NCBI RefSeq assembly: GCF_050920415.1
Contig: NZ_CP169309.1
Strand: one strand, 5' to 3'
DNA: 64,000 nt
Origin: Escherichia coli
GTDB lineage: Bacteria > Pseudomonadota > Gammaproteobacteria > Enterobacterales > Enterobacteriaceae
Positions 54,243 through 58,830 of this stretch are shown here, piece after piece. A model generated the notes under the pieces. It did no database searches. It had not been told where the DNA came from and was given only the letters and a program-made list of their open reading frames with translations. The position numbers and the translations under genes were made by a program. Positions within the stretch are counted from its first letter, which is position 1; each line of letters begins with the position of its first letter.

Positions 54243-55934
54243 ATGAGATACATCAAATCGATTACACAGCAGAAGCTGAGCTTTTTGCTTGCAATCTATA
54301 TTGGCCTTTTTATGAATGGCGCGGTTTTTTACCGCCGCTTCGGCAGCTATGCGCACGATTTTACCGTCTGGAAAGGCGTTTCTGCTGTTGTTGAACTGGT
54401 CGCTACCGTACTGGTGACCTTCTTTTTACTGCGTCTGCTTTCGCTGTTTGGCCGCCGCAGCTGGCGAATTCTGGCATCGCTGGTGGTGCTCTTTTCTGCA
54501 GGTGCCAGCTATTACATGACTTTCCTTAATGTGGTCATTGGTTATGGCATCATCGCATCCGTCATGACCACCGATATCGATCTGTCAAAAGAAGTTGTTG
54601 GTCTGAACTTTATTCTCTGGTTAATCGCCGTAAGCGCATTACCTCTTATCCTTATCTGGAATAACCGCTGTCGCTACACCTTGCTCCGACAACTGCGAAC
54701 CCCAGGGCAACGTATTCGGAGTCTGGCGGTCGTCGTACTGGCAGGTATTATGGTTTGGGCACCGATTCGTTTGCTGGATATCCAGCAGAAGAAAGTGGAG
54801 AGGGCGACAGGTGTTGATTTGCCGAGTTATGGTGGCGTTGTCGCGAACTCTTATCTGCCATCAAACTGGCTTTCGGCGTTAGGTCTTTATGCCTGGGCGC
54901 GGGTCGATGAATCTTCCGATAACAATTCTCTCCTTAACCCTGCGAAGAAGTTTACGTACCAGGCTCCACAAAACGTTGATGATACATATGTCGTTTTCAT
55001 TATTGGTGAAACCACGCGCTGGGATCATATGGGCATTTTCGGCTATGAACGCAATACCACACCGAAACTGGCTCAGGAGAAAAATCTGGCGGCGTTTCGT
55101 GGCTATTCTTGTGACACGGCGACCAAACTTTCTCTGCGTTGCATGTTTGTGCGTCAGGGTGGAGCAGAAGATAATCCGCAGCGCACATTAAAAGAACAGA
55201 ACATTTTCGCGGTATTGAAGCAGTTAGGATTCAGTTCTGATCTCTACGCTATGCAAAGCGAAATGTGGTTCTACAGCAACACGATGGCAGACAACATTGC
55301 TTATCGTGAGCAGATTGGTGCGGAGCCACGTAACCGTGGCAAGCCGGTAGATGATATGTTGCTGGTAGACGAAATGCAGCAATCGCTGGGGCGCAACCCG
55401 GATGGCAAGCATCTGATCATTTTGCATACCAAAGGTTCGCACTTTAACTACACCCAGCGTTACCCGCGCAGCTTTGCGCAGTGGAAGCCGGAATGTATTG
55501 GTGTTGATAGCGGCTGTACCAAAGCGCAGATGATCAACTCCTATGACAACTCGGTGACCTATGTGGATCACTTTATCTCCAGCGTGATTGATCAGGTTCG
55601 CGATAAGAAAGCGATTGTGTTCTACGCAGCTGACCACGGTGAGTCAATTAACGAACGCGAGCACCTGCACGGCACACCGCGTGAACTGGCACCGCCGGAG
55701 CAGTTCCGCGTACCGATGATGGTCTGGATGTCGGATAAATATCTGGAAAATCCAGCCAACGCGCAGGCATTTGCGCAGTTGAAAAAAGAAGCTGATATGA
55801 AAGTGCCACGCCGTCACGTAGAGCTGTACGACACCATCATGGGTTGTCTTGGCTATACTTCACCGGACGGTGGTATTAACGAAAACAACAACTGGTGTCA
55901 CATCCCGCAGGCGAAAGAGGTCGTGGCTAACTAA
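54243..55934 (+). CDS. eptB: Kdo2-lipid A phosphoethanolamine transferase
   Basis: 563-aa product from MRYIKS; N-terminal TM region plus sulfatase-like domain. Confidence 0.85.
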
Positions 55935-56025
55935 GAGGCCTGCTGACTTTCTCGCCGATCAAAAGGCATTTTGCTATTAAGGGATTGACGAGGGCGTATC
56001 TGCGCAGTAAGATGCGCCCCGCATT

Positions 56026-56102
<77 letters not shown>

Positions 56103-56109
56103 AATTCGA

Positions 56110-56139
56110 AAAGCCTGCTCAGCGAGCAGGCTTTTTTGC
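56110..56139 (+). terminator. Rho-independent terminator after proK (aaaagcctgctc-agc-gagcaggctttttt)
   Basis: Perfect hairpin plus T-run. Confidence 0.65.
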
Positions 56140-56152
56140 ATTTGAAGCCCAT

Positions 56153-56270
56153 GAGGATGAGAACCTCCGGGGGCGGGGAGGTTCGACTCGAGCGAAGCGA
56201 GAGAACGTTGCGCCAGCAACGGCCCGCAGGGCGAGCCACGAAGTGGCGAGTAATCCTCTATCACCGACCA
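56153..56270 (+). repeat. tRNA-Pro 3'-end-containing repeat unit 1 (118 nt), ending in aatcctctatcaccgacca
   Basis: Contains a T-arm-like ggaggttcgactc, an insertion of about 60 nt, and then an exact copy of the last 19 nt of proK; followed by hairpin aaaaaccagcctacgggctggtttttt. Confidence 0.5.
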
Positions 56271-56320
56271 ATTTAGAAAAACCAGCCTACGGGCTGGTTT
56301 TTTGCTTTCTGCGGCCTGAA

Positions 56321-56424
56321 GAGGATGAGAACTTCCGGGGGCAGGGAGGTTCGACTCCAGCAAAGCGAGAGAACGTTGTGGCAGCAACGGCCCGCAGTGG
56401 CGAGTAATCCTCTGGCACCGACCA
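56321..56424 (+). repeat. tRNA-Pro 3'-end-containing repeat unit 2 (104 nt), ending in aatcctctggcaccgacca
   Basis: About 90% identical to unit 1 with a 14-nt internal deletion; ends in a 2-mismatch copy of the proK 3' end. Confidence 0.5.
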
Positions 56425-56433
56425 AATCTGAAC

Positions 56434-56515
56434 GTAGGCCTGATAAGACGCGTCAGCGCCGCATCAGGCAACGGCACCGCACTTATTGTCGGATGCGGCG
56501 TGAACGCCTTATCTG
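56434..56515. repeat. BIME (two REP units) downstream of the proK repeats
   Basis: gtaggcctgataagacgcgtcagcgccgcatcaggca ... cggatgcggcgtgaacgccttatc palindromes. Confidence 0.5.
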
Positions 56516-57055
56516 ACCGACACACCACATATTTCCCTGCCAAATTTGCGCCCCACATCTCACTATCCATTAACGGATTTGTGACAGAATCCATTGTCTT
56601 TTTTTATATTTGCTTAAATCTTTTTTTGCGTTACTTATGGCTGGCGCTGGTATTTTCCGCTGTGCGTTTTAGCGTTCATGGTATTAATCGCTCAGATATC
56701 CATCTTTTCCTCAGATTTTTTTCATTAAATGCATAAAACTTAATCACCAAATGTTGCTAAATATTAAGCTGATTGTTCTGGTTATGTTGGCGTAGCACAA
56801 ATTTCTCTGCTGCAAATAGCTGTTTGAAGTTTTTTTAATCTTTGTTTGTGGATTCTCACCGTTGGTGTAAATCCCGGTTGGCTGTATTGACGTTTTCACA
56901 TTCTGTTGACAGATTGTAGGTCACGAGGGGCATTTTATGGAGGATCCGCACTGTTACACTGATGTTAATTAGTACGGCATCCCCACCTCATAACGTTGAC
57001 CCGACCGGGTAAAAAACAAAAAAGGTCAGGCAGCGACAACCCACTGCAAAGGGTT

Positions 57056-58732: not shown

Positions 58733-58830
<98 letters not shown>

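Follow-up and report, generated by a model that had tools for sequence, protein, structure and literature searches.

The two tandem units that lie 3′ of proK in the 64,000-nucleotide stretch of Escherichia coli DNA analysed here (hereafter the window) belong to the RtT family (Rfam RF00391), as do the 178-bp repeats of the tyrT operon. The full covariance model, whose gathering score is 45 bits, matched unit 1 with 100.4 bits and unit 2 with 63.4 bits, and in an E. coli record that is 100% identical over this region (NZ_CP169399.1) PGAP labels the same positions as two features, each named 'RtT sRNA'. The proK-linked units are real and can be described precisely, but they are already known, both as a curated family and through automatic RefSeq annotation. 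Taken together, the RtT identity of the units, their anatomy, an array that recombines, tRNA-like processing, low expression and the decay of unit 2 make up what we regard, with high confidence, as the best joint explanation of the locus.

The host gene of the array, proK, is the single tRNA gene that ARAGORN detected in the window, and its neighbours are the 3′ end of eptB on one side and dppA on the other. The locus is laid out as follows:

55985-56013, + strand: promoter-like site of proK, TTGACG-17-TAAGAT.
56026-56102, + strand: proK, tRNA-Pro(CGG), host tRNA of the array (ARAGORN; Rfam tRNA model, 60.7 bits).
56108-56136, + strand: intrinsic terminator of proK, a 13-bp hairpin followed by UUUUUU (fold of -19.6 kcal/mol, z -4.0).
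56137-56270, + strand: RtT unit 1, full-length and structurally intact (RF00391 model positions 1-130; MFE fold; PGAP).
56177-56189, + strand: copy of the T-stem 5′ strand and half of the T loop in unit 1 (GGAGGTTCGA|CTC), which pairs with the upstream GAACCTCC as helix P2 (family alignment).
56252-56270, + strand: tail of unit 1, which repeats the final 19 nt of tRNA-Pro, discriminator base and CCA included (0 mismatches to AATCCTCTATCACCGACCA).
56276-56303, + strand: second intrinsic terminator, 3′ of the CCA of unit 1, a hairpin followed by a U-run (fold of -18.5 kcal/mol, z -5.2).
56304-56424, + strand: RtT unit 2, degenerate terminal member of the array (RF00391 model positions 1-130).
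56406-56424, + strand: tail of unit 2, a copy of the tRNA-Pro 3′ end of the CTGGCACC variant (2 mismatches to AATCCTCTATCACCGACCA).
56437-56518, no strand assigned: REP/BIME palindromic pair that bounds the array and lies outside RtT (Rfam naRNA4, 69.6 bits).

Both units lie on the same strand as proK, unit 1 starting 35 nt past the gene and unit 2 starting 34 nt past unit 1. The sequence-only reading of this DNA had described two units of 118 and 104 nt that are about 90% identical, the second lacking 14 nt, and the alignment bore this out: between 56153-56270 (118 nt) and 56321-56424 (104 nt), 96 of the 104 aligned bases are identical (92.3%), with a single gap in which the 14 nt at 56228-56241 of unit 1 are missing from unit 2 between 56395 and 56396. 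The T-arm-like sequence that it had placed in each unit is GGAGGTTCGACTC, located at 56177-56189 and 56345-56357, and the tRNA's own T arm (56075-56087) matches it with one mismatch. The insertion given as about 60 nt, measured as the stretch from GGTTCGA to ATCC, is 66 nt long in unit 1 and 52 nt long in unit 2. Match positions likewise confirmed that the units end in the last 19 nt of tRNA-Pro, exactly in unit 1 and with 2 mismatches in unit 2, and the terminator-like hairpin assigned to unit 1 was recovered at 56276-56303. The 19-mer AATCCTCTATCACCGACCA, which is the 3′ end of tRNA-Pro (56084-56102, within the tRNA itself), occurs in three copies in the window, against a chance expectation of 0.02 matches. 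The CTGGCACC variant of the tail is also carried by the terminal unit of other E. coli alleles (L134 and L135) and is found in Phytobacter.

Tandem Repeats Finder reported a period of 168 nt and 1.9 copies over 56084-56404; the natural repeat at proK therefore runs from tail to tail, terminator included, with its parts ordered as tRNA-like tail, intrinsic terminator, 5′ strand and core. Scans of the units with tRNA and covariance models, which the sequence-only reading had proposed, gave matches to RF00391 and no match to a tRNA, neither with ARAGORN nor in a permissive Rfam scan (E-value up to 1). A search over the units for a coding signal or a Tpr-like peptide returned mechanical ORFs only, none of them supported and none integrase-like.

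The two intrinsic terminators were missed by the consensus terminator scan, probably because their A/U tracts pair into the stem, and were found by direct folding. Where the stem of the unit 1 terminator differs from that of the proK terminator, the differences are compensated. In the Pro-type arrays of many genera a terminator follows the CCA of the tRNA and that of nearly every unit, the exceptions being some terminal units, and the hairpins are kept despite different stem sequences. The stem type found at 56276-56303 also occurs 3′ of proK in Citrobacter werkmanii (L007) and 3′ of a unit in Phytobacter (L042), and there are hints that this terminator may be an old or imported module.

RtT first became known as a repeat of 178 bp in the tyrT operon of E. 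coli (gene rttR; Bosl and Kersten 1991, cited in PMC3318445 and PMC4986893). The tyrT locus holds 3-5 annotated RtT units with a period of 178 nt, and aligning them with the proK units separated a common core from three host-specific parts, namely the 5′ strand, a stretch that resembles the tRNA variable region, and the tail. The tyrT locus itself varies: in E. coli MLI104K1 an RtT unit lies between its two tRNA-Tyr genes (L005, 1360-2272), and in E. coli TOE51 (L006) the tRNA-Tyr genes are adjacent and are followed by five RtT units, a rearrangement that is module shuffling like that at proK. As to annotation, the curated MG1655 record (L132, NC_000913.3, 3708150-3708615) has no feature on the proK-linked RtT, whereas the name 'RtT sRNA' is given to it in PGAP-annotated genomes of identical sequence. 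PGAP also transfers to the proK copies its note 'processed from tyrT transcript', which cannot hold literally for them.

The structure of the family was assessed on an alignment of 31 sequences from five host types with a model of six helices. In this model 90.7% of the cells are paired, compared with 38-46% in controls with the partners displaced by 1-3 columns; compensatory changes occur at 17 pairs, and none of 500 shuffles matched the observed covariation score. RNAalifold recovered the same helices independently, and the six-helix RtT RNA structure is thus supported by covariation. A unit of ~130 nt consists of the core hairpins P2 to P6 with a tandem-GA motif, a closing helix, and a discriminator base with a CCA end. 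The tandem-GA motif that Rivas reported in RtT (PMC7657543) corresponds to the G.A/A.G pairs in helix P3 of our model. In the closing helix, the 5′ strand pairs with the copy of the T-stem and acceptor 3′ strand of the host tRNA, and itself unites that tRNA's acceptor and T-stem 5′ strands in one, as can be read from the Lys type (CGTGCAGG vs CCTGCACG) and the Ser type (GGTGAGGCAGGG vs CCCTCCCTCACC). When duplexes were scored free of register, the 5′ strand preferred the tail of its own host for Tyr (-16.0 kcal/mol), Lys (-13.4 kcal/mol) and Ser (-18.9 kcal/mol). For Pro(CGG) the closing helix is weaker than in any other type of the family, at about -7 kcal/mol, and its own tail was not preferred over the Pro(UGG) tail. 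A strand test on the paired columns counted 23 G.U against 16 A.C, or 9 against 2 when the closing helix was left out, which weakly favours the strand of the tRNA.

The two units of the window differ in how well they keep this fold. The MFE fold of unit 1 reproduces all helices of the family. In unit 2 the 14 missing nucleotides are those of the 3′ strand of P5 and the 5′ strand of P6; the tandem-GA position has a C for G, and the fold is no better than that of shuffled sequence (z -1.0). Unit 2 is most likely a decaying terminal copy.

A first scan with the T-loop/core junction, using one genome per species, returned at least 120 loci, and a census with nhmmer and ARAGORN counted 167 unit matches in 94 loci among those listed. 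The host tRNAs in this census were Tyr(GUA), Pro(CGG), Pro(UGG), Lys(UUU), Ser(GGA) and Arg, and at the census loci RtT lies directly 3′ of the tRNA gene and on the same strand. Most of the taxa are enterobacterial genera, together with a few marine Gammaproteobacteria such as Marinobacterium and Oceanobacter. Units linked to Lys, Ser, Arg and Pro(UGG) tRNAs also clear the Rfam threshold, with 57-97 bits. In 90 of 110 cases the tail was identical over 18 nt to the 3′ end of the nearest upstream tRNA, whereas comparison with the 3′ ends of other host types gave a mean of 6.0 mismatches; the tails follow even host-specific variants of tRNA-Tyr. Tail and 5′ strand both match the host clearly in the Tyr, Lys and Ser types, and weakly in Pro(CGG). 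Only this quantified rule, that the tail of RtT and, in most host types, its 5′ strand track the host tRNA, may be mildly new.

At the orthologous eptB-tRNA-dppA locus of some Enterobacter and Pluralibacter genomes, Pro(UGG) replaces Pro(CGG). In one such case the RtT tail copies the 3′ end of the Pro(UGG) tRNA (L056, 8643-8885), and in another the unit beside the Pro(UGG) tRNA is truncated and has no tail (L019, 6371-6556). The tRNA and the tail of the repeat appear to have been replaced or homogenised together at this locus.

Within E. coli, the alleles of the proK locus differ by whole modules of 168 nt, which gives the following series:

0.5 unit (proK, terminator, 5′ half-unit, REP): O157:H7 and ST131.
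1.0 unit: strain 98210.
1.5 units (one full unit and a truncated half-unit): K-12 MG1655.
2.0 units: the present window; strain A1_136.
2.5 units: O111:H8.

The sequence-only reading had left open whether K-12 has the same structure as the window; MG1655 has a single full unit and a truncated half-unit. Among 60 genomes sampled at even ranking steps from 5,422, 26 had no full unit, 24 had one and 3 had two, while in 7 the flanks were split. About half of the E. coli genomes keep only the half-unit, so full units are dispensable at proK. At least 80% of a 661-nt query that spans the array was covered in 333 genomes (6%), which we take to indicate a two-unit layout like that of the window. The allele of the window (55900-56560) is rare: an identity of at least 99% was found in 1 of 5,426 complete E. 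coli genomes, most showing 93-97%, and the flanks of the array are ~97.5% identical to typical E. coli.

The pattern of copy numbers fits what is expected from unequal homologous recombination in a tandem array. From the allele series and the tracking of tails, we infer that the array would grow and shrink by unequal homologous recombination between the 168-nt modules, and that the same process, or gene conversion, may hold the tails identical to the adjacent tRNA gene. In several alleles the terminal full unit bears the diverged CTGGCACC tail, as is expected of edge copies that escape homogenisation. With 0.5-2.5 units, and with IS insertions in the REP next to it, the array at proK is a small tandem locus of high polymorphism that could serve strain typing.

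Interruptions of the locus were assessed by joining the eptB-proK flank to the dppA-upstream flank and searching for both in all complete E. coli genomes. The flanks lay within about 950 nt of each other, eptB, proK and dppA being contiguous, in 4810 of 5422 genomes, and proK was split from dppA in 612 (about 11%). All five of the split loci that were inspected proved to be IS insertions (IS621 twice, IS1397 twice and ISEc13 once), located in the REP/BIME interval between the proK array and dppA, and none of the five held an integrase island. The interval between array and dppA is a recurrent landing site for IS elements; IS621 and IS1397 have been reported to target REP sequences. In other genera dppA starts 600-900 nt past the array wherever the locus sequence extends that far, with the one exception of an uncultured Pluralibacter contig that has no dppA in the 2.1 kb downstream. 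We found no RtT unit in genuine phage or mobilizable-plasmid records: the matches in the phage collection were Salmonella chromosomal contigs and one unannotated 7-kb record, and the plasmid matches were all to non-mobilizable records, many of them megabase-sized. A constant copy number together with a lack of integrated elements at proK in relatives is what the sequence-only reading had said would speak against it; the comparison of the proK-dppA interval that it had suggested revealed copy-number variation and IS insertions, and no integrated island among the inspected loci.

Integration at a tRNA gene classically leaves direct repeats of the tRNA 3′ end, and the sequence-only reading had offered stacked att-site remnants of lost elements as one account of the units. 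Such attL/attR scars, produced when elements that an integrase had inserted at the 3′ end of proK were lost again, would explain why direct repeats of the tRNA-Pro 3′ end exist and why their number is polymorphic, and the RtT model is among the non-coding RNA models of Phage_Finder v2 (PMC12540744). What lies between the repeats, however, is a structured core of ~100 nt, not cargo debris; RtT units behind Tyr, Lys, Ser and Arg tRNAs of many genera share this core, which carries compensatory changes. The units also have a 5′ strand that complements the tail, as well as a second copy of the T stem, neither of which is expected of att scars. The uninterrupted interval in the large majority of E. 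coli genomes, the IS elements in every sampled exception, the eptB-tRNA-RtT-dppA synteny kept across genera, the lack of an integrase-like ORF over the units and their absence from genuine phage and mobilizable-plasmid records all point the same way. We regard this account as unsupported and extremely improbable, on the grounds that no island was seen at the five inspected split loci and that the covarying core is conserved across tRNA types. The array does resemble the att duplications that flank phages and islands in that the final ~19 nt of a tRNA recur as direct repeats 3′ of the intact gene, but it differs from them in having no integrase and no cargo, in the conserved structured element between the repeats, and in that no occupied allele occurred in the sampled genomes. 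Repeated tRNA 3′ ends are not always scars of integration, and island-finding heuristics should mask look-alike RtT arrays.

A tRNA-like content without integration could also come from tandem duplicates of the tRNA gene that have decayed into pseudogenes, their T loop split by an insertion, and that have no function of their own. The units do hold a host-like variable-region stretch and a T-stem 5′ strand with TTCGA, followed by ATCC and a T-stem/acceptor 3′ strand with CCA, so that excising the core of 52-66 nt gives a perfect T arm; unit 2 is visibly decaying, and half of the E. coli genomes lack a full unit. The 5′ strand, however, is the fusion of acceptor and T-stem strands and does not come from decay of a D or anticodon region, neither ARAGORN nor the Rfam tRNA model recognises a tRNA in the units, and one core with one architecture behind six tRNA types is not expected from independent pseudogenisation. 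The core helices and the 5′ strand moreover covary and keep their pairing, which implies selection on the fold, and we judge a pseudogene origin to be quite unlikely. It is similarly unlikely, if slightly less so, that the units are a stacked terminator or insulator cassette between proK and dppA which acts at the level of DNA or transcription, with the RtT core as a passenger of the duplicated terminator. This would suit the strong, conserved intrinsic terminator with compensated stem changes in nearly every Pro-type module, and the place of the array directly upstream of the dppA regulatory region, beside the REP pair. The tyrT-, Lys- and Ser-type arrays, however, share the core without such terminators, and their units also occur between co-transcribed tRNA genes; at proK, 0.5 to 2.5 copies are tolerated with the first terminator always present. 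Membership in the RtT family, with a fold under covariation and ends that track the host tRNA, is the reading that we retain.

As to expression, proK of K-12 yields a monocistronic transcript of ~113 nt that ends at a Rho-independent terminator, and RNase E cuts directly after its CCA (Mohanty et al., PMC5291269). A promoter scan found no promoter-like site between proK and the units; since the proK transcript ends at the first terminator, the proK-linked units would be made by read-through alone. The alternative account in the sequence-only reading, a family of tRNA-derived small RNAs co-transcribed with proK, therefore fared unevenly: the family is borne out by RF00391 and by the PGAP label, and co-transcription at this locus is doubtful in view of the terminators and of the K-12 transcript data. 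RNAs of the RtT family have been seen on Northern blots in Actinobacillus (PMC4986893) and in RNA-seq of Klebsiella (PMC4147364). The end of the K-12 transcript at the first terminator speaks for little read-through or none, and with a strong terminator ahead of each unit the proK-linked copies are probably weakly expressed. If proK and tyrT are taken as guides, RNA that does read through the terminator would be processed after the CCA of the unit: RNase E would cut where an AU-rich stretch follows the tRNA-like CCA end, as it does at proK, and would free a CCA-to-CCA fragment of about 168 nt, like the rtT RNA from tyrT.

The closest relative of the proK array is thus the RtT of tyrT. Both are tandem, lie directly 3′ of a tRNA on the same strand, end in a copy of the host 3′ end with CCA and vary in copy number, and they share the core (GGATGAGAA ... 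GGTTCGAyTCGAGCG ... AGCGAGAGArCGTTG ... GCAACGrCCCG ... GAGTAATCC) and the multi-helix fold. They differ in that the tail, the 5′ strand and the variable-region-like stretch are of Pro type at proK, after its host tRNA-Pro(CGG), in the period (168 nt vs 178 nt), and in the intrinsic terminator, which the proK modules contain and the tyrT spacers do not. The closing helix is far weaker at proK (about -7 vs -16 kcal/mol), and release of a discrete RNA has been reported for tyrT but not proK. REP/BIME elements, one pair of which adjoins the array, are likewise short structured intergenic repeats of variable copy number, but they are dispersed palindromes unrelated to tRNA, whereas RtT occurs only 3′ of tRNA genes, in their orientation, and copies their ends.

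A further likeness is to tRNA minihelices. RNase P, the CCA-adding enzyme and some synthetases act on minihelices and tRNA-like 3′ ends. The closing helix of RtT similarly joins the acceptor and T-stem 5′ strands and leaves a single-stranded ...NCCA end, but it carries a structured insert of about 100 nt in place of the T loop, and in the proK type the helix is short and bulged. From the host match of tail and 5′ strand in several tRNA types we put forward, as a tentative idea with rather low odds, that RtT units are not passive by-products of tRNA operons and act as tRNA-specific mimics, with a host-matched acceptor/T-arm minihelix and a free NCCA end set on a conserved scaffold. If they are mimics, they may be recognised by RNase P or E, by the CCA-adding enzyme, by the cognate synthetase or by RelA on the ribosome, and may serve as decoy or sensor. 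The rtT RNA is said, in an old report, to modulate the stringent response, and the mimic reading would, if true, give that effect a concrete mechanism. RtT ends that track the host tRNA over several tRNA types are a clean and testable clue to function. For the present window itself, the identity of the units as RtT matters little.

Outside the array, a match to Rfam ES036 (CssrF) was found just 3′ of dppA (58754-58796, - strand, 44.8 bits), and is probably another element of the REP type.
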